A stretch of 24,000 nt of DNA from Eggerthellaceae bacterium (GTDB lineage: Bacteria > Bacillota > Clostridia > Oscillospirales > Butyricicoccaceae): NCBI GenBank assembly GCA_963588905.1, contig CAVAJF010000014.1:11566-35565 (forward strand). Direction: 5' to 3'. The translations under genes and the position numbers were made by a program. Below, in pieces: positions 1 through 16,322 of this stretch. The notes under the pieces were generated by a model that had not been told where the DNA came from, did not search any database, and worked only from the letters and a program-made list of their open reading frames with translations. Every line of letters begins with the position of its first letter. Position 1 is the stretch's first letter.

Positions 1-499
1 GTTTTTTATATCTGCCACTCTTTTCGGCTTTTTTTTGAATTTTTTTTACAAATGGATAGGAAAAAAATTTGCCGAATTTTTACACGAAAGAATTATATGA
101 TGCTAATAACCGACAACATCGGCTAATTTTCTCCAGATTTTCAGTTGCAAATATACAACTTTTTTCTCATATAAACGCTCAAAAATTCGTCATCTGCAAC
201 CAAAATGCAACATTTTCTCACTATACTCCGCAAAGATGCTTGAATATATACAACAGTTTCCGCAAATTTGATGAATAATTTCATCTCGCTTCCTGCATTT
301 TCTAAATTTACACAAGGAATATTTTCCCGCTGTTTTCTCCTATTCAACAGCTCAAATTGCCCATATTGCCGGACAATTGCCGCATTTTTCGCTTTTTTTC
401 TTTGCACCCGGTTAACCGGATGCATCTCTCACTCCGCCGGAAGGCATAGCCCGTTCGGACGTGAATGCTCCAATCGGACAATTTCGCGTCGATTTCTGC

Positions 500-529
500 A
501 AAAAAGACCCGCAGATTTCTCCGCAGGTC
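500..529 (-). terminator. Rho-independent terminator closing the JAB operon
   Basis: On the minus strand GACCTGCGG-AGAAAT-CTGCGGGTC forms a 9-bp stem (2 G-U pairs) followed by TTTTTT. It starts 12 nt after the stop of the 59-aa ORF. Confidence 0.6.
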
Positions 530-541
530 TCCGATATATGT

Positions 542-721
542 TCATCCCTTGTAGTGAAAACATCCATTGCGGTCGCTCGGTCTGTTGTAACCGCCATACG
601 GACCATCACAATGCACCCGTCCATAGTCGTCTTTATCGCGCCAGTTTGCATAAATGCAGTCGCTGCAATTGCCTCGAAAACATCCCTTTGGAATCATAAT
701 TTTCTTCGGACATTCTTTCAT
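542..721 (-). CDS. 59-aa Cys-rich miniprotein (MKECPKKIMIPKGCFRGNCSDCIYANWRDKDDYGRVHCDGPYGGYNRPSDRNGCFHYKG), function unknown
   Basis: Hand-translated; too short for the ORF track. ATG at 721 is preceded by AAGGAGG with 8-nt spacing, 21 nt after the JAB stop. It has 6 Cys and 2 His (including CxxC) and is followed by a terminator. Confidence 0.6.
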   Translation of the reverse strand: MKECPKKIMIPKGCFRGNCSDCIYANWRDKDDYGRVHCDGPYGGYNRPSDRNGCFHYKG

Positions 722-742
722 TTTGAACAGCCTCCTTGTCGT

Positions 743-1183
743 TTATATGGTAACGAGAGAAATCTCGTCACATGCAATACTAATCTGTTCCTGCTTTCGT
801 GTCGCTATGTAAGAAACAATCTGCTTTTCAGGAAGCAGGATAACCGGAAAGTATAGCTGTGTGATTTCTTCCGGCATCGCCCGCATAATAACTTGAATAT
901 ACGATTGATCGGACAACGAAAGCGTTTTGGATGCTCCAAAATGTGTGTGGAACATGCCGTAAAATTCAATTCCTTGTTCGCTCCATCGTGCAATGCAAGC
1001 ATTCAATGCATCTACATCCGGTCGGTATTCACAATAGCTTTCCGGCTCTAATCCCTTGTCCAAATAGAACTGTGTGATAACCCCATCCGTTCCACCTAAA
1101 ATTCCACCAAATTCGTACTTGGTTTTAGGAAAAGCAGAAAAGAGCGGTTGTATCATAGATTGCTGCAGTCTCATCTTAGTCAA
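743..1183 (-). CDS. Stand-alone JAMM/MPN (JAB) family metalloprotease
   Basis: Complete JAMM signature: E24 in YEFGGILGG, then H79-T-H81-x7-S89-x2-D92 (HTHFGASKTLSLSD, nt 949-908). The TTG at 1183 overlaps the upstream stop by 4 nt; an alternative ATG lies at 1174. Confidence 0.8.
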   Translation of the reverse strand: MTKMRLQQSMIQPLFSAFPKTKYEFGGILGGTDGVITQFYLDKGLEPESYCEYRPDVDALNACIARWSEQGIEFYGMFHTHFGASKTLSLSDQSYIQVIMRAMPEEITQLYFPVILLPEKQIVSYIATRKQEQISIACDEISLVTI

Positions 1184-1392
1184 GCCATGCGCAGTATAAA
1201 CTTTACGACTGCACGCATGAGATAATATATGCCAAAAATAACCCCCAGCACATATCCCACAACGGCTTTGAGAATCTTATACTGAATGCCCTTCCGCTCC
1301 AAAATGGCGAACTGCTTCGCATTCACATAATTCCATCCCACATATACTGCCCATACGAAATAGGCAACCAAAAGTGCACCAATAACTGCCAT
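1180..1392 (-). CDS. 70-aa two-TM membrane miniprotein
   Basis: Two hydrophobic helices. The GGAG/GGGGAG RBS is embedded in the end of the upstream gene, and the ATG lies 3 nt after that gene's stop. Confidence 0.6.
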   Translation of the reverse strand: MAVIGALLVAYFVWAVYVGWNYVNAKQFAILERKGIQYKILKAVVGYVLGVIFGIYYLMRAVVKFILRMA

Positions 1393-1395
1393 GTT

Positions 1396-1782
1396 TTACT
1401 CCCCGTCTCCATTGTTTTGTTTTTGGCTGATACGTCCACTTATTTGCTGCTGTACTTTAGCCTCCAACTTTGCAAACATACAATCTTCTTCTGTCGTTGG
1501 AAACTTTACTTTAAGGTACTCTGGTATACCCTTACATCGATTAAACTTCGCATCATATAAAGAACAGCCTTTGCAGTTAAACGGAAAATATTTTTTCGGA
1601 TGTATTTTCTCTCGTATTATGCCCACAAGAAGTACAAGCAGCATAAACGCTCCTTTTATCAAAGCAATAGCTGCAAAAATAATGAAAGCAATGATTCCAA
1701 CAGCGACAATCCCTGGTAAAGCTACTTCAACTAAAAAATGAAGCGGCAACTCGATAAACAAGAATTTCAAGAAAGCTTCCAA
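1396..1782 (-). CDS. 128-aa membrane protein with C-terminal CxxC-x9-C-x17-C tail
   Basis: N-terminal hydrophobic segments (ALPGIVAVGIIAFIIFAAIALI, GAFMLLVLLVGII) are followed by a soluble 4-Cys tail. TTG start has an AAGGGGGA RBS. First gene after the promoter. Confidence 0.6.
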   Translation of the reverse strand: MEAFLKFLFIELPLHFLVEVALPGIVAVGIIAFIIFAAIALIKGAFMLLVLLVGIIREKIHPKKYFPFNCKGCSLYDAKFNRCKGIPEYLKVKFPTTEEDCMFAKLEAKVQQQISGRISQKQNNGDGE

Positions 1783-1806
1783 TTGCTATTCCCCCTTTGT
1801 TTTTCC

Positions 1807-1835
1807 ATCATAGCACGTCACCCGCTTTATGTCAA
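1807..1835 (-). promoter_or_regulatory. Sigma-70-type promoter of the JAB operon
   Basis: Minus strand reads TTGACA (1835-1830), 17-nt spacer, TATGAT (1812-1807), about 25 nt upstream of the first gene. Confidence 0.6.
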
Positions 1836-1916: not shown

Positions 1917-2240
1917 ATAGTAGAATTTGGAAAGCAGCTCAAACAGCTGCGGCGGCAAGCGCGGCTGACCCAAACGCAGCTGGCGGCACAATTGGGCGTG
2001 AGCAAATCCGTTGTTTCCTATTATGAGTTGCAAGAGAGATACCCTTCTCCGGAAATCCTTATGAAAATCGCTTCGATTTTTCATGTAAGCACGGATTATT
2101 TGCTCGGAATTGAAAAAACGTCCGGTATTGATACAACCGGACTGACTTCAGACGATATACAATTGGTACACGCTCTGATAGAGACCCTGCGAAAGAAGAA
2201 TGCGGAACTGCTAAAAAATAGAACGGAAGAAAGAGGTTAA
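1917..2240 (+). CDS. XRE-family HTH transcriptional regulator (no canonical start codon; possible ATA start or start-loss pseudogene)
   Basis: The HTH_3-like sequence EFGKQLKQLRRQARLTQTQLAAQLGVSKSVVSYYELQERYPSPEILMKIASIFHVSTDYLLG begins at 1923. The first ATG/GTG/TTG is the TTG at 1992, inside the HTH. GAGGTG (1906-1911) sits 5 nt before the ATA at 1917. Confidence 0.65.
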   Translation: MVEFGKQLKQLRRQARLTQTQLAAQLGVSKSVVSYYELQERYPSPEILMKIASIFHVSTDYLLGIEKTSGIDTTGLTSDDIQLVHALIETLRKKNAELLKNRTEERG

Positions 2241-3325: not shown

Positions 3326-3492
3326 AGTCTGTTTCACCTCCATAAAAGTGATTGGGACATAGAAAATGCCCTTCTGCTCAAAGACAGAAGGGCATGAAAA
3401 ATCATTTGGAAAATTTCACAAATGCTTGCCTCGGCAGGATGGTAAAAACCGGTTACGATGGATTGTCCATCTCCTGCTGTCTTTGAACGAGC
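3326..3492 (-). promoter_or_regulatory. rplJ (L10) leader with intrinsic terminator/antiterminator
   Basis: Hairpin ATGCCCTTCTG-loop-CAGAAGGGCAT (3366-3395) followed by UUUUCU just before the rplJ RBS. The 5' leader segment UCAAAGACAG (about 3477-3486) is complementary to CUGUCUUUGA inside the terminator. Confidence 0.6.
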
Positions 3493-3498
3493 TATTAT

Positions 3499-3527
3499 AG
3501 TATAACAGCCCGATTCATTCCTGTCAA
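3499..3527 (-). promoter_or_regulatory. rplJL promoter
   Basis: Minus strand reads TTGACA (3527-3522), 17-nt spacer, TATACT (3504-3499). Confidence 0.65.
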
Positions 3528-5732: not shown

Positions 5733-5882
5733 TTACTTGGTCTCACGATGGAGTGTGTGCTTCCGGCAGAACGGGCAGTACTTCTTCATCTCAAGACGCT
5801 CCGGGTTGTTCTTCTTGTTCTTCATCTTGTCGTAGTTTCTCTGCTTGCAATCGGTGCAAGCCAGGGTTACCTTAACGCGCAT
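5733..5882 (-). CDS. rpmG: 50S ribosomal protein L33 (49 aa, absent from the ORF track)
   Basis: Hand translation: [61 protein letters not shown] upstream. Confidence 0.93.
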
Positions 5883-5941
5883 AACGGCACCTCCTTAAAT
5901 AATTGCCTCCCTTTGCAGGGTTGCTTCCCAAAAGAGAGCAT

Positions 5942-5987
5942 AAAAAAATACCCTGCATAGGTGTTGTTATTATAACACGCAGGGTAT
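5942..5987 (-). terminator. Intrinsic terminator downstream of the 6080-6439 gene, overlapping the rpmG promoter
   Basis: Minus strand: ATACCCTGC (5987-5979) ... GCAGGGTAT (5956-5948) with an inner GTGTT/AACAC stem, followed by a T7 run. Confidence 0.6.
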
Positions 5988-5997
5988 CTTTCGTCAA
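5969..5997 (-). promoter_or_regulatory. rpmG-secE-nusG promoter
   Basis: Minus strand reads TTGACG (5997-5992), 17-nt spacer, TATAAT (5974-5969). Confidence 0.65.
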
Positions 5998-6079
5998 TGC
6001 CGATTGGATAATTTATTTTTCACAAATTTTCGCAGATGTTTTTGTCACGAACACAGCACTGTGCCGACTTCGTCCGCCT

Positions 6080-6439
6080 TTAGCGGTTGATGATCTGGAA
6101 GAACCAGCTGTACGCGACGAGAACAGCGAAAATGGTGTAGCAGATCATGGTCATCGTGCGGCCTCTCTCCTGGGTGCGCGACGCAAAAATGCCGAGGATA
6201 CTGCCGACAAACGCAATCGGATAGCCGACAAACGCGCCGATCTGTCCGCAGAACTGTCCGACCAGAATGCCGACCAGCATAATGGCAACAGAAATCAGTC
6301 CCATATAGGTATTCTTTCTATTCTTCTTTACTTCCTGTTCTGCCGCTTCAATCTCTGCTTTTGTTGGTGCCTTCGGTGGTGCCTTGCGCTGCGGCGCACG
6401 CTTTTTTCCGTTTTTTCTCTTGGATTTGGATTCTGCCAT
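6080..6439 (-). CDS. Small membrane protein with Lys/Arg-rich N-terminus (paralog 1)
   Basis: AAAGGAG RBS. Basic N-terminal 45 aa followed by hydrophobic helices. Shares GYP[IL]AF[VI]G with the neighbouring gene. Confidence 0.7.
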   Translation of the reverse strand: MAESKSKRKNGKKRAPQRKAPPKAPTKAEIEAAEQEVKKNRKNTYMGLISVAIMLVGILVGQFCGQIGAFVGYPIAFVGSILGIFASRTQERGRTMTMICYTIFAVLVAYSWFFQIINR

Positions 6440-6477
6440 GTGTATATTCTCCTTTATGTTATAATTTCATGTATTCC

Positions 6478-6822
6478 TCACCCATTTCCCATAATGAGGA
6501 GCACAAACTGCATCGCGCACAGCATACAGAACACGCACAGGACAATTTTTGTAATCTTATGGTTGGTCGTGTCCCATTGCGTATTGACCATAGACGCTGC
6601 GGCGCCGATAAATGCCAGCGGATAGCCAATCAGAGAAGTGATGCGATTGTCAATCAGTGCAAGCACAAATCCTACAATCATCACGCCCAGACAGGCAAAT
6701 CGGATTTTTTTCTCTTTATCCCAGTCCCGCATGGTTGGAACCGCGTTTTTTGTCGTCTGTGCCGCATGGGATTTATTGTTCTTCTTGCGTCCTTTTTTTC
6801 GATTGTTTTTGGATTGTGCCAT
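6478..6822 (-). CDS. Small membrane protein with Lys/Arg-rich N-terminus (paralog 2)
   Basis: The start at 6822 (MAQSKNNRKKGRKK) matches the paralog's N-terminus and has an AGAAGGGG RBS. The ORF-track start at 6843 is probably too long. Confidence 0.7.
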   Translation of the reverse strand: MAQSKNNRKKGRKKNNKSHAAQTTKNAVPTMRDWDKEKKIRFACLGVMIVGFVLALIDNRITSLIGYPLAFIGAAASMVNTQWDTTNHKITKIVLCVFCMLCAMQFVLLIMGNG

Positions 6823-6951
6823 ATCATCAACCCCTTCTCTCATTTTTTGCTTGTTCTATTATAACAATCAAACGCAAAAAGTGCAATGTCATTTGCATCG
6901 GAATCCCCCGTATGCTACAATAGATTTATAGAATAAAGGAGTTTACGGAAC

Positions 6952-7377
6952 ATGAAAATTATGGGAATTGATTACGGCGATGCACGCACAGGTGTGTCGA
7001 TTTCTGATCCGACCGGATTTTTGGCAGGTTCTCCACAGGTCATTTCCACTTGGAATACCGAAAAGCTGCTGGAAGAACTGACTGCTCTCGTACAGAAAGA
7101 AAAAATTGAAGAAATCGTTATGGGTCTGCCGAAAAATATGAACGCCACCCAAGGCGAACGTGCAGAAAAGTGTAAGGCGCTCGGCGCAGAGCTGGAATCG
7201 CGCACCGGTGTTCCGGTTGTCTACTGGGATGAACGCCGCACCACCATTGAAGCCCATGCGATTTTGCACGCCTCTGGCAAAAAGCAGAAAAAGCACAAGA
7301 AAAATGTCGATGCAGTCGCGGCATCCCTCATTTTACAGGGCTATCTCGATTTTAAACGAATGCAGAACAACGTCTAA
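6952..7377 (+). CDS. ruvX: Holliday-junction resolvase-like / pre-16S rRNA nuclease YqgF (RuvX)
   Basis: MKIMGIDYGDARTGVSISDPTGFLA... and the 141-aa length are typical of the YqgF family. Confidence 0.9.
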   Translation: MKIMGIDYGDARTGVSISDPTGFLAGSPQVISTWNTEKLLEELTALVQKEKIEEIVMGLPKNMNATQGERAEKCKALGAELESRTGVPVVYWDERRTTIEAHAILHASGKKQKKHKKNVDAVAASLILQGYLDFKRMQNNV

Positions 7378-7398
7378 ATACCGGTTTAGAAAGAAATC

Positions 7399-7440
7399 GC
7401 GCAGGTTTTCCGAATGACGGAAAAACCTGCGCTGTTTTTA
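7399..7440 (+). terminator. ruvX terminator
   Basis: GCGCAGGTTTTCC-gaatgac-GGAAAAACCTGCGC followed by TGTTTTTATT. Confidence 0.75.
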
Positions 7441-7776
7441 TTCTGCTTTTTTTGTCGTCATGCCTACCAGCCAAAAGACAACCAAGAACACTGCCGCGAC
7501 AAGAGCAGACAGTGTCATGCTGCCGGAGCCCATCAAATACTGCACGCCCGCCGTCAGAAGAACAAACAGAATACAAAAACCAACTGCTTTGTTGCGCGCG
7601 AAACTATAAGAGATCCAGCGTGCCGCCATGGCACCGAGCACCGCAGAGATAATCGCCGCAGGCTGCCAAGTAAATTTCATCGTAAGTAAAGCAAAGCAAA
7701 TGCTGTCTACTAATAAAAAGGAAAACCATCCAAAAATACCCGCCAAGATCGCATTTCGTGTGCTGATTTTTTTCAT
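7438..7776 (-). CDS. Hypothetical multi-pass membrane protein (112 aa)
   Basis: Three to four hydrophobic helices. No recognisable motif. Confidence 0.6.
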   Translation of the reverse strand: MKKISTRNAILAGIFGWFSFLLVDSICFALLTMKFTWQPAAIISAVLGAMAARWISYSFARNKAVGFCILFVLLTAGVQYLMGSGSMTLSALVAAVFLVVFWLVGMTTKKAE

Positions 7777-7921
7777 GATCGCGATACCTCCCGCCTTTGT
7801 GCAGAATTATAACACGGTCATCCAATACCCGCAATGCAAAAATCCCATGCAGGACAGCTGTGTATCATGCAGAATTTTTTGCACATACTAGAATATCGTC
7901 AAACGCTAGGGAGGATTGGAT

Positions 7922-8623
7922 ATGTTTGCAGTACAAACGGCGCTCACTGCTCTGCTCGCCTTGGCAGTCTTATTTGCTATCACCAAGGCAATCGGGCATC
8001 GGCAATTGGCACAGCTCAGTACCTTTGATTATATCAACGGGATTACAATCGGTTCGATTGGCGCAGAACTCGCCGTCGCAGAGGGACAGGAATTCTGGAA
8101 ATGGCTGGTCGCCCTGCTGGTATTTGGTGTCGCAACATGGATTCTTGCCGTCTTGCCCAATCGTTCACTGCCTTTGCGCCGCTTTCTCAACGGCCGCGCG
8201 TCGATTCTGCTCGACAATGGCAGATTATATGATAAGAATTTCAAGCGGGCGCACATGGACATCCATGAATTTCTGATGGAATGCCGCAACCAAGGCTATT
8301 TCGATCTCAGTCAAATTCAAACAGCTGTACTGGAGGCCAACGGCAGCATCAGCATTTTGCCGGTCAGCCGCTACCGTCCGGCGACACCGGAAGATCTCGC
8401 TCTCTCCGTTTCTCAGGAGACCGCCTGCGGCAATGTGATTTTAGACGGCGTGCTCATGGAACGCAATCTCAAAAACATGGGATTTGACCGCGCTTGGCTG
8501 GACAAGCAGCTCGCGCGGCAGCATGTACGGATAACGGACATCTTTTTGGCTATTTGTTCAGCAGACGGCAGTTTAACCGTATTTCCCTATACACACAAGG
8601 ATCATCGCGATATTTGGGAGTAA
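7922..8623 (+). CDS. DUF421 (YetF-like) membrane protein
   Basis: Collinear with B. subtilis YetF-type proteins (TFDYINGITIGSIG..., LLDNGRLYDKNFKRAHMDIHEFLMECRNQG..., LEANGSISILP). The ATG at 7922 lies 8 nt after GGGAGG. Confidence 0.8.
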   Translation: MFAVQTALTALLALAVLFAITKAIGHRQLAQLSTFDYINGITIGSIGAELAVAEGQEFWKWLVALLVFGVATWILAVLPNRSLPLRRFLNGRASILLDNGRLYDKNFKRAHMDIHEFLMECRNQGYFDLSQIQTAVLEANGSISILPVSRYRPATPEDLALSVSQETACGNVILDGVLMERNLKNMGFDRAWLDKQLARQHVRITDIFLAICSADGSLTVFPYTHKDHRDIWE

Positions 8624-10534: not shown

Positions 10535-11590
10535 ATGACGTTTTATCAAGAATTACAACTCAATCAAGCGGGTTCTAAGAAGATCATCCGCGAGAGCCAA
10601 ACCGCACAGGAAAAACGGCGGCACATTTTGATTTATCTGTTCAAAATCGCCATTACCGTCGGATTTTGTTTTGTTTTTGTGACGCTGTACAGTCTTATTT
10701 TCGGCTCCGGAAACAGCATTGTCGGTGTTGTCGTTTTACTGCATCTGTTGGTCTTTAAAAATGCAGATCTTCGGATGGATGCCAAGCAATCAACCGGCTT
10801 GCTTGCACTGTTTTTCGCCATCATGACGATTGCCACGCATGTTGCCAATATGGCCAATCCATTTGTCGGGTTGCTCATCAACGCCGCAGCCATTTTGATT
10901 TTAATCTTATTCGGCTGCCACGAACCACGCATGTTCAATCAATCTACGCTGGTTCTCAGCTATCTGTTGCTGTACGGCTATGACGTCTCCGGTACAGAAT
11001 ATCTGACACGTATCGCCGGTATGGCAGTCGGTGCTATTCTCGTCTGTGCAGTCTTTTATAAGAACCATCGGCATCAGACCTATGATCTGCATGTACAGGA
11101 CATCTTACCAGCCTTCACGCTGACGCATCCGCGTTCTAAATGGCAGTTATGTCAAATCCTTTGTGTTCCGCTGGTCATTTTCCTTGCCGAACTGTTTGGT
11201 ATGCCGCGTGCCATGTGGGCAGGTATTGCCGCCATGTCTGCGATTCTTCCTGTCATGGAAGACATGCAGTCTCGCGTGCGCGGACGCATTATCGGCAATA
11301 TCGCCGGTGTGCTGTGCTTTTTTGTTTTGTATACCTACCTGCCGTCTGCGATTTATGCGTATATCGGTGTCATCGGCGGCATTGGTGTCGGTTTCTCCGC
11401 CAAATACGGCTGGCAAGCAGTCTTTAATACCTTTGGTGCTCTTGCCATTGCTTCCCAGCTCTATGGCGTATCCGCGGCAATGGGCCTGCGTGTATTTCAG
11501 AATGTATTCGGTGTTTTGTTTGCGCTTGGCTTCTGTTTAATTTTCAATTGGATTATGCAGCGCACCCAGTGTACCCAGCAAACCGCCTGA
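10535..11590 (+). CDS. FUSC-family (FUSC_2-like) integral membrane protein
   Basis: Multi-TM protein with RVRGRIIGNIAGVL, resembling the R-x3-R-x2-G[TN]-x2-G motif of FUSC-like exporters. The ATG at 10535 follows GAAGGGAG; the ORF-track start at 10442 lacks an RBS. Confidence 0.6.
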   Translation: MTFYQELQLNQAGSKKIIRESQTAQEKRRHILIYLFKIAITVGFCFVFVTLYSLIFGSGNSIVGVVVLLHLLVFKNADLRMDAKQSTGLLALFFAIMTIATHVANMANPFVGLLINAAAILILILFGCHEPRMFNQSTLVLSYLLLYGYDVSGTEYLTRIAGMAVGAILVCAVFYKNHRHQTYDLHVQDILPAFTLTHPRSKWQLCQILCVPLVIFLAELFGMPRAMWAGIAAMSAILPVMEDMQSRVRGRIIGNIAGVLCFFVLYTYLPSAIYAYIGVIGGIGVGFSAKYGWQAVFNTFGALAIASQLYGVSAAMGLRVFQNVFGVLFALGFCLIFNWIMQRTQCTQQTA

Positions 11591-16202: not shown

Positions 16203-16255
16203 AAATACAAAAAACCGCCCATTTCTTACGAAACAGACGGTTTATCATGGAGCTA
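16203..16255. repeat. attR-like 53-bp direct repeat (overlaps the tRNA-Thr 3' end)
   Basis: Identical to 11652-11704. Confidence 0.9.
16206..16243 (-). terminator. tRNA-Thr terminator (duplicated at about 11655-11692)
   Basis: Minus strand: AAACCGTCTGTTTC-GTAA-GAAATGGGCGGTTT, a 14-bp stem with 3 G-U pairs and a GNRA loop, followed by a T-run. Confidence 0.7.
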
Positions 16256-16322
16256 ATGGTCGGATTTGAACCGACGACCTGCTCATTACGAGTGAGCTGC
16301 TCTACCCCTGAGCCACATTAGC
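16248..16322 (-). tRNA. tRNA-Thr (anticodon CGU)
   Basis: Hand-folded cloverleaf: GCTAATG/CATTAGC acceptor, GCTC/GAGC D stem, GCTCA-CTCGTAA-TGAGC anticodon arm, GTCGG-TTCAAAT-CCGAC T arm, encoded CCA. 75 nt. Confidence 0.93.

Follow-up and report, generated by a model that had tools for sequence, protein, structure and literature searches.

Results

Organization of the operon

The stretch of DNA analysed here (24,000 nucleotides, hereafter the window; positions 11,566 to 35,565 of the forward strand of contig CAVAJF010000014.1, assembly GCA_963588905.1, from an organism deposited as an Eggerthellaceae bacterium and placed by GTDB in the Butyricicoccaceae) carries on its minus strand a compact operon of four small genes, the last two of which encode a predicted JAMM/MPN+ metalloprotease (JAB) and a cysteine-rich miniprotein (mini). 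Across related loci, the conserved core of this module is the pair formed by JAB and mini and not the four-gene set. The operon opens with g1 (1396-1782), an open reading frame (ORF) of 128 amino acids in which a hydrophobic N-terminal hairpin is followed by a four-cysteine tail. It continues with g2 (1180-1392), a 70-amino acid ORF with two transmembrane (TM) helices, JAB (gene 3; 743-1183), of 146 amino acids when read from a TTG codon and 143 when read from ATG 1174, and mini (gene 4; 542-721), a 59-amino acid ORF. An initial annotation made from the sequence alone had proposed this four-gene unit, and the ORFs as well as the spacers of 3 nucleotides (nt) between g1 and g2 and 21 nt between JAB and mini are as it described. 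Direct reading of the translations likewise bore out the motifs it listed, namely the catalytic residues of JAB (E24/H79/H81/S89/D92), a CxxC-x9-C-x17-C arrangement in the tail of g1, and six cysteines and two histidines in mini. The 4-nt overlap given for g2 and JAB depends on the start codon. It holds with the TTG start of JAB; however, all JAB homologues begin with M-[KR]-I and the methionine at alignment position 4 is nearly invariant, which makes ATG 1174 the likelier start and replaces the overlap by a 5-nt spacer. The TTG start of g1, in turn, is supported by the conservation of its N-terminus (MxAFLKFL) in relatives.

A sigma-70-like promoter (TTGACA-17-TG-TATGAT; 1807-1835, minus strand) precedes g1, as initially annotated. 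With 11 of 12 positions matched and an upstream TG extending the -10 element, it is the top promoter-like site of the region. Since the promoter scan as a whole did not exceed chance (6 sites compared with 5.1 expected from shuffled sequence), the call rests on the position of the site and on the conservation of its -10 element in relatives, not on the scan score; the -35 element has been lost from some of these through a deletion of the type found in locus L031 (L numbers designate related loci, and P numbers database proteins). The intrinsic terminator placed at the other end of the operon (~497-532, minus strand) was also substantiated. A pattern-based terminator scan did not list it, but RNAfold showed a 13-bp hairpin with GAAA as its loop, together with a U-run (-20.3 kcal/mol, z = -3.9), the stem of which is also present in close relatives.

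Divergently oriented beside the operon, as noted initially, is a gene for an XRE-family helix-turn-helix (HTH) regulator (1917-2240, plus strand), the product of which matches HTH_3 (E = 4e-15) and the PADLOC capH model (4.5e-10). Its reading frame opens after the TGA at 1905-1907 and contains no ATG, GTG or TTG before TTG 1992, a start that would remove HTH helices 1 and 2. An ATA codon (1917-1919), conserved in the close relatives L009 and L032, sits 5 nt after GAGGTG and is the probable start; this arrangement suggests either that translation begins at ATA, a rare start codon, or that the repressor is weakly translated. A search of the XRE-g1 intergenic region for an operator found no inverted repeat. 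Of 56 dereplicated loci, 34 have an XRE gene within 3 kb, and in 29 this gene is both upstream and divergent; the usual regulator of the JAB-mini core is predicted to be a divergent XRE repressor.

JAB is a divergent JAMM protease

The initial annotation credited gene 3 with a full set of JAMM catalytic residues (E24, then H79-x-H81-x7-S89-x2-D92), and these five residues proved invariant in an alignment of 119 JAB sequences. The AlphaFold2 (AF2) model of JAB (predicted local distance difference test score, pLDDT, 92.6; predicted template modelling score, pTM, 0.87) has an MPN fold. Submitted to Foldseek, it returned 164 PDB matches at E <= 1e-3, the top matches listed being MPN-domain proteins. 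Among solved structures, it fits best those of the desampylase PfJAMM1, both on its own and in complex with SAMP2 (E = 4e-9, TM-score 0.74-0.86), and further fold matches include Mov34, the uncharacterised Firmicute protein 2KKS, CSN5, Rpn11, BRCC36 and Cap3 (9ILD). By sequence, too, the JAB family profile finds JAMM1 (8.7e-6). The profile searches suggested initially gave weak generic JAB matches and neither a RadC nor a tail-protein match: Pfam Prok-JAB (PF14464) reached E = 0.024 and 14.9 bits, under its gathering cut-off of 25, and the PADLOC JAB (Cap3) models 5.8e-5. Several members of the family do have a precomputed PF14464 match. Neither Pfam nor PHROG revealed a RadC-type N-terminal region or a fused NlpC/P60 domain, and JAB is a single domain of 143-146 amino acids. 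On the strength of the invariant motif and the modelled fold, gene 3 encodes a genuine JAMM/MPN+ protease with an intact predicted catalytic site, and the sequence comparisons place it in a divergent clade of the JAMM/MPN+ superfamily and not outside it. Comparison with close relatives gave a ratio of nonsynonymous to synonymous polymorphism (pN/pS) of 0.06-0.18 for JAB.

A first search with the single JAB sequence found eight relatives only, and a profile search at least 390 sequence clusters, all of them unnamed. With at least 264 clusters found by the profile of mini, the description of the module as an orphan no longer holds.

Mini is a sharply defined four-cysteine protein

Four of the six cysteines of mini are spaced CxxC-x15-C-x15-C (C19, C22, C38, C54). 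G13, C19, C22, C38 and R51 are invariant in the family, and C54, P11, F15, G17, N18, D21, Y24, D31, G34, R35, Y42, G43, Y45, P48 and G53 are conserved in at least 90% of its members. The gene is preceded, at a distance of 7 nt, by a strong ribosome-binding site (AAGGAGG), and is often overlooked or called in the wrong frame by gene callers. Its pN/pS of 0-0.04 relative to close relatives denotes strong purifying selection; that of g2 is 0.15-0.31. These low ratios and the conservation of both genes in relatives establish that the small ORFs are real. An exhaustive search of 1.84 billion representatives with mini returned only 122 at E <= 1e-3, indicative of a small and sharply defined family.

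Since mini is a cytoplasmic protein and its host an anaerobe, four cysteines spaced in this way (CxxC-x15-C-x15-C) predict a metal site, and mini is probably a zinc-binding mini-domain with a Zn(Cys)4 or other metal site. Its AF2 model (pLDDT 72) consists of three short strands without a helix and has no structural analogue in PDB or BFVD; as modelled, mini is not a beta-grasp ubiquitin-like protein (Ubl). The N-terminal motif I-x-I-P-x-G-x-F-x-G-N-C is conserved; even though the alignment was deep, its model has low confidence, as would be the case if this segment required a partner in order to fold. The C-termini of the family end in [FL][HY][YWF] followed by one to four residues, and are short, variable and devoid of Gly-Gly. 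No signal peptide was found in mini.

Two leads on mini were discarded. Diglycine-type cleavage after YGG was considered and rejected, as the GG of YGGY is not kept in the divergent L001, L011 and L004. When the mini profile was compared with PDB sequences, the only match was to the CxxCH of cytochrome c3 at chance level (E = 0.04); it was rejected, mini lacking the histidine.

JAB and mini form a conserved pair

All contigs of the first eight JAB relatives encode a mini homologue beside JAB. The association held from both sides: a mini-first scan restricted to one genome per species found JAB at 45 of 45 loci, and a JAB-first scan of metagenomes (284 matches, 80 of which were kept, representing 27 distinct JABs, 25 of them with room downstream) found mini with all 25 assessable distinct JABs. 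Mini usually lies on the same strand downstream of JAB, at -67 to +112 nt (mostly 0-100 nt for the variants found from the JAB side), and the two genes share an ATGA-type 4-nt stop/start overlap in at least seven lineages. The smaller partner was the more conserved in 99.6% of locus pairs, with a mean identity of 63% compared with 39% for JAB. These arrangements identify mini as an obligate partner of JAB, predicted to be co-transcribed and often translationally coupled with it. The survey of gene neighbourhoods, suggested initially as a test of whether the four genes co-occur elsewhere, thus showed co-conservation of JAB and mini and not of the whole set, proteins like g1 and g2 being swapped between loci. 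The full window-like order of Cys-rich membrane protein, 2-TM protein, JAB and mini recurs in L015; the organism concerned is very common, its mini being indexed in 1575 blocks of the genome collection. Two JAB-mini fusions (P0270, P0309) were dropped as Rosetta-stone evidence, as they look like in-frame deletions of a locus of the L129 type.

Membrane-associated partners and tethered four-cysteine domains

The positively charged stretch REKIHPKK follows the hydrophobic hairpin of g1 and, by the positive-inside rule, would place the four-cysteine tail of this protein in the cytoplasm, the predicted compartment of JAB. When g1-type tails and the N-termini of CFI-box proteins (see below), a template set chosen by eye, were compared with mini, they aligned across all four cysteines (hhalign probability 59%, E = 9e-5), and homology between the g1 tail and mini appears likely. 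Direct homologues of g2 occur in L015, L031, L033 and L056; g2 also aligned with a group of 2-TM proteins designated 2TMc (hhalign probability 88%), although TM composition inflates such scores. Neither Pfam, NCBIfam, PHROGs nor PADLOC v2.0.0 holds a model for mini, g1 or g2, and scans with these collections returned no match for the three proteins; JAB and the XRE regulator gave only weak generic JAB and generic HTH matches, respectively, in PADLOC-DB v2.0.0.

At other loci, the pair is accompanied by a shuffled set of further genes. Most frequent among these are Sel1-repeat proteins, often TM-anchored (21 of 57 loci), followed by small 2-TM proteins, g2 among them (~14 of 57, about a quarter), and an unannotated family of "MWR"-repeat miniproteins (12 of 57), which are 50-116 amino acids long, comprise four to six repeats of ~12 residues (Y-x-D-x-S-G-M-W-R-x-P-x-D) and are encoded after JAB-mini (for example L041, 2029-2259; L058, 6141-6392; L064, 2597-2947). 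A coiled-coil/TM protein of 306-395 amino acids (CC-TM306) is found at 10 loci, often with a TM2-domain protein and Sel1, and ~130-amino acid proteins with two four-cysteine domains at four. CFI-box-CTERM proteins with an N-terminal four-cysteine domain are encoded at five loci. A C-terminal CFI-box-CTERM (NF041770, E = 7.7e-23) is found in proteins of L040 (6292-6837), L048 (1330-1827), L050 (6262-6783) and L013 (1329-2195); in L040, L048 and L050, it is preceded by a mini-like N-terminal CxxC...C...C domain. The CFI-box is not mentioned in the literature searched. Apart from Sel1 and TM2, no Pfam family was found in the accessory proteins, and scans with Pfam, NCBIfam, PHROGs and PADLOC together yielded only Sel1, TM2, CFI-box-CTERM and weak lipocalin/DUF5640 matches.

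Significant paralogues of mini, with either a TM anchor at the C-terminus or several TM segments in one domain, are encoded beside JAB and a free mini (L045, 3e-15; L040, L048 and L079; P0273, P0280, P0261 and P0266). In P0355 and L076, a mini-like domain is joined to a TM segment plus a C-type lectin, and here no JAB is encoded in the vicinity.

The initial annotation had pointed to an uncharacterised JAB module devoid of Ubl, E1 and E2 partners, and this description extends to the family: more than 130 related loci revealed no Ubl, E1, E2, CD-NTase, RadC or tail-protein context, and no E1-like adenylating enzyme is encoded within ~5 kb at any locus. JAB homologues are not consistently found in any known setting, such as CBASS (cyclic oligonucleotide-based antiphage signalling system) or a phage tail.

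Further observations concern individual partners. Database protein P0263 consists of the N-terminal half of mini joined to MWR repeats. Genes for secreted M23 peptidoglycan endopeptidases flank JAB-mini at two unrelated loci (L019, 3302-4375; L079, 4208-6322), one of the enzymes carrying Ricin-B lectin domains, and the L019 locus lies between TIR-NB-ARC-TPR, AAA and TIR-MORN genes. Loci of the L129 type, represented by at least 27 human-gut contigs, are the commonest version of the module in the human gut; in these (5881-8237), lipoproteins of 129 and 479 amino acids and a TM-anchored protein of 135 amino acids are encoded downstream, and a lipocalin-like domain (GxWY...YDDGT) is common to the 129- and 135-amino acid proteins. 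Weak DUF5640/Lipocalin_4 matches were obtained with a related lipoprotein of L049. Lipocalin-like lipoproteins were considered as a general partner of the pair and dropped, being confined to a few lineages (3 of 56 loci).

Distribution, mobility and decay of the module

The nearest genome match to the locus is a metagenome-assembled genome of Anaerotignum sp. (Lachnospirales, Anaerotignaceae), the mini of which is 98% identical. The pair is present in hundreds of gut Clostridia. The distribution of JAB-mini is patchy and restricted to gut Clostridia of humans and animals, and the loci sit between unrelated housekeeping genes; in the window, the operon is placed between rplL and an AT-rich spacer, with rplL, rplJ and its L10 leader, rplA, rplK and nusG upstream. 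Serine recombinases are occasional neighbours (L045, L071, L075), L027 is found at a prophage edge with Mu-F and minor capsid-ART genes, and TIR-NB-ARC, TIR-MORN, IetAS, DRT and PDC-S01 are among the occasional defence neighbours. Horizontal acquisition, which had been proposed from the low GC content of the operon, is consistent with this patchy spread, the unrelated positions and the deletions seen between strains. The argument from base composition fared less well: the operon has a GC content of 35-47% and the ribosomal protein genes 49-58%, but other parts of the window range from 41 to 50%, so that GC alone is weak evidence of a foreign origin.

The five close relatives (L009, L031, L032, L080, L081; ~91-97% DNA identity) all differ from the window by insertions or deletions, and the window carries the most complete version of the module seen. 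L031, L080 and L081 lack 1828-2090, corresponding to the 5' half of the XRE gene and the -35 element, and L009 and L032 lack 1098-1504, which comprises the 3' end of g1, g2 and the N-terminus of JAB with its catalytic glutamate. An in-frame segment of 108 nt encoding the TM stretch of g1 (1631-1738, minus strand) is seen in the window only and has no counterpart in any of the five; conversely, a 54-nt segment of the g1 tail in relatives is missing from the window. Since L009 and L032 split, mini has accumulated three synonymous and no nonsynonymous changes, and the JAB remnant nine synonymous and six nonsynonymous ones (pN/pS ~0.18).

Discussion

To our knowledge, the prokaryotic JAB/JAMM proteases whose function is understood almost all act on Ubl tags or belong to nucleotide-signalling defence systems. 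The protein closest to JAB in fold and chemistry is the minimal archaeal JAMM1 (PfJAMM1 of Pyrococcus furiosus, 5LD9/5LDA; HvJAMM1 of Haloferax). Like JAB, JAMM1 consists of an MPN+ domain alone, ~130-145 residues long, and the two have the E...HxH...S..D zinc site in common; their sequence identity is 12-15%. JAMM1, however, acts on Gly-Gly beta-grasp SAMPs alongside the E1 UbaA, whereas JAB is partnered by a four-cysteine miniprotein and no E1. In genomic style, the module is closest to the defence JABs Cap3 (of CBASS) and BilC (of Bil), which are also found in mobile and often XRE/CapH-regulated operons, and to modules combining an XRE regulator with a protease. It differs from the former in that no CD-NTase, Cap2, BilA, BilB or BilD (E1, E2, Ubl) is encoded at any JAB-mini locus; neither CD-NTase nor Cap2, hallmarks sought for type II CBASS, was found in the window or in related neighbourhoods, and no Ubl, E1 or E2 family of a Bil or other bacterial Ubl-conjugation system occurs among the neighbours. 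We found no description of the JAB-mini pairing in the literature searched, and we regard both the non-Ubl obligate partner of a JAMM protease and this operon architecture as new.

Taking the evidence as a whole, we infer, with a probability of about 0.4, that the locus is a mobile conflict module under XRE control and that its JAB docks on four-cysteine domains, or cleaves them, at the inner face of the membrane. According to this proposal, JAB would work in the cytoplasm at the membrane surface and the four-cysteine domain would be its docking and/or cleavage target, free mini serving as a dedicated substrate or regulator of the protease. The initial suggestion that the protease may act on the Cys-rich peptide or on the g1 tail agrees with two results, the strict co-occurrence of JAB and mini and the profile alignment of the four cysteines of mini with those of the g1 tail. 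Membrane-tethered paralogues, represented in the window by the tail of g1, may then recruit JAB to, or direct its activity against, small membrane proteins of the g2 kind, which would be the presumptive output of the system. The patchy, mobile and modular distribution of the pair is suggestive of a role in biological conflict, with abortive-infection phage defence and an addiction-type function as candidates; metabolism or peptide maturation are less likely roles.

A number of observations weigh against this proposal. Nothing directly indicates contact or cleavage between JAB and mini, and no recognisable effector enzyme was found in any accessory protein. The homology of the g1 tail with mini is suggestive, a plain hidden Markov model (HMM) search of the g1 tail with the mini HMM giving E = 1, which is not significant by itself, and the hhalign templates having been selected by eye. 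The TM anchor of g1 is unique to the window. The association with defence genes is scattered and, as far as neighbour counts go, modest. Sequenced phages and plasmids are almost devoid of the module: there was no plasmid match, a single dubious phage-genome match to an unannotated 4-kb "phage" contig, and the IMG/VR matches mostly belong to one lineage at a prophage border. Finally, that mini and the JAB remnant still look constrained in L009 and L032, in which JAB has lost its catalytic glutamate, hints at a role of mini that does not need JAB catalysis.

This last observation would sit well with a toxin-antitoxin-like pair, in which JAB or a small membrane protein is toxic, mini neutralises it and XRE autoregulates transcription. 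Such an arrangement would recall MqsR-MqsA, where a zinc-ribbon antitoxin follows the toxin and carries an XRE domain: in both cases, the first gene precedes one for a small zinc-binding protein (predicted for mini), an XRE-type HTH is linked to the pair, and the system is small and mobile. The translational coupling of JAB and mini, the XRE gene usually adjacent, the patchy occurrence of the module and the loss of single components from close strains, either the 5' end of JAB together with g2, mini being kept (L009, L032), or XRE (L031), all fit. On the other hand, antitoxins usually evolve faster than toxins, and mini is the slowest-evolving part of the module. Toxin-antitoxin modules normally come without a large shuffled set of membrane, Sel1 and CFI-box genes, and no component matches a known toxin or antitoxin family. 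With MqsR and MqsA there is no relation in sequence or fold, and XRE is here a separate protein and dispensable, L031, L080 and L081 keeping JAB, mini and g2 without it, so that XRE is not an essential antidote. We consider this explanation unlikely.

Signalling by regulated proteolysis, on which membrane partners (Sel1, lectin, lipoprotein, TM2) sense an envelope or extracellular cue and JAB cleaves the tethered four-cysteine domain or XRE to switch expression, is likewise an improbable account of the locus. Precedents exist in ImmA/ImmR, CapP/CapH and BlaR1/BlaI, in which a protease switches gene expression, and a divergent XRE gene is common near JAB-mini, some of the XRE proteins having TM segments of their own (L015), and the window XRE resembling regulators of the CapH type. 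The occurrence of the four-cysteine domain in fusion with a TM segment and a C-type lectin (P0355), or beside lipoproteins and secreted M23 peptidases, also speaks for a sensing function. However, XRE varies in length and sequence and is missing from about a third of the loci, making it an unlikely conserved substrate; no output regulon is evident outside the operon, and the known anti-repressor proteases are HExxH enzymes, not JABs. The conflict module that we favour would follow the same logic as ImmA/ImmR, CapP/CapH and the bacterial gasdermin-protease operons, a mobile unit in which an XRE regulator and a dedicated metalloprotease are combined with an output that acts on the membrane. It departs from them in that their proteases are of the HExxH or caspase-like kind, that the conserved partner is here a four-cysteine miniprotein, and that the membrane proteins are unrelated to gasdermins.

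The trimming of a mini precursor by JAB to a bioactive or metal-binding peptide comes to mind for a small Cys-rich ORF beside a protease and was among the roles raised initially, but is very improbable. Mini is uniformly conserved and lacks both a signal peptide and the leader with a hypervariable core that characterises the layout of ribosomally synthesized and post-translationally modified peptides, genes for modification, export or immunity are not among its conserved neighbours, the diglycine of YGGY is not kept in L001, L011 and L004, and the C-termini are short, variable and without GG. Least credible is a disguised Ubl system with mini as a tiny tag and JAB as its processing or deconjugating enzyme, by analogy with SAMP/JAMM1 and CysO/Mec, for although the solved structure closest to JAB is that of a desampylase with its SAMP2 and the partner is, like ubiquitin, far more conserved than the protease, mini shows in its model neither a helix nor a beta-grasp nor any PDB or BFVD analogue, has no C-terminal Gly-Gly, and is accompanied by no E1-like enzyme within the ~5 kb surveyed.

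We further venture, as a bold and doubtful extension of the conflict module proposed above, that JAB and mini could form a protease-small-protein switch operating without a Ubl, the free or tethered zinc-stabilised mini-domain acting as the recognition and cleavage handle through which small membrane effectors are armed. If true, this would amount to a new abortive-infection or conflict family of gut Clostridia and to the first defined non-Ubl substrate class for a prokaryotic JAMM. Irrespective of mechanism, a predicted catalytically intact clade of JAMM proteases that is common in Clostridia of the human and animal gut is tied to a wholly different kind of partner, and the role of the pair, once known, would define a new class of JAMM substrate or cofactor. 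The same knowledge would lend a function to the mini, g2-like 2-TM, MWR-repeat, CC-TM306 and CFI-box N-terminal domain families. The module might add to the list of Clostridia-specific conflict or defence systems one that is absent from PADLOC, Pfam, NCBIfam and PHROGs; the pair itself occurs widely, has clear limits and lends itself to experiment.

Other features of the window

Downstream of the operon terminator, in the AT-rich spacer, is an ORF of 94 amino acids (141-425, minus strand), versions of which (72-100 amino acids) occur in close relatives only. On the other side of the operon, the rplL terminator (2260-2288) is a perfect 13-bp GC-rich palindrome that scored as a terminator on both strands and could also end the convergent XRE gene. 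Rfam models located the ribosomal protein L10 leader (RF00557) upstream of rplJ at 3353-3504 (minus strand), a tRNA gene at 16251-16322 (minus strand) and, within ~840 nt of the minus strand, three copies of the skipping-rope RNA (RF02924; 12005-12089, 12153-12229 and 12764-12840), which scored 50.6-56.3 bits against a gathering score of 36.7.

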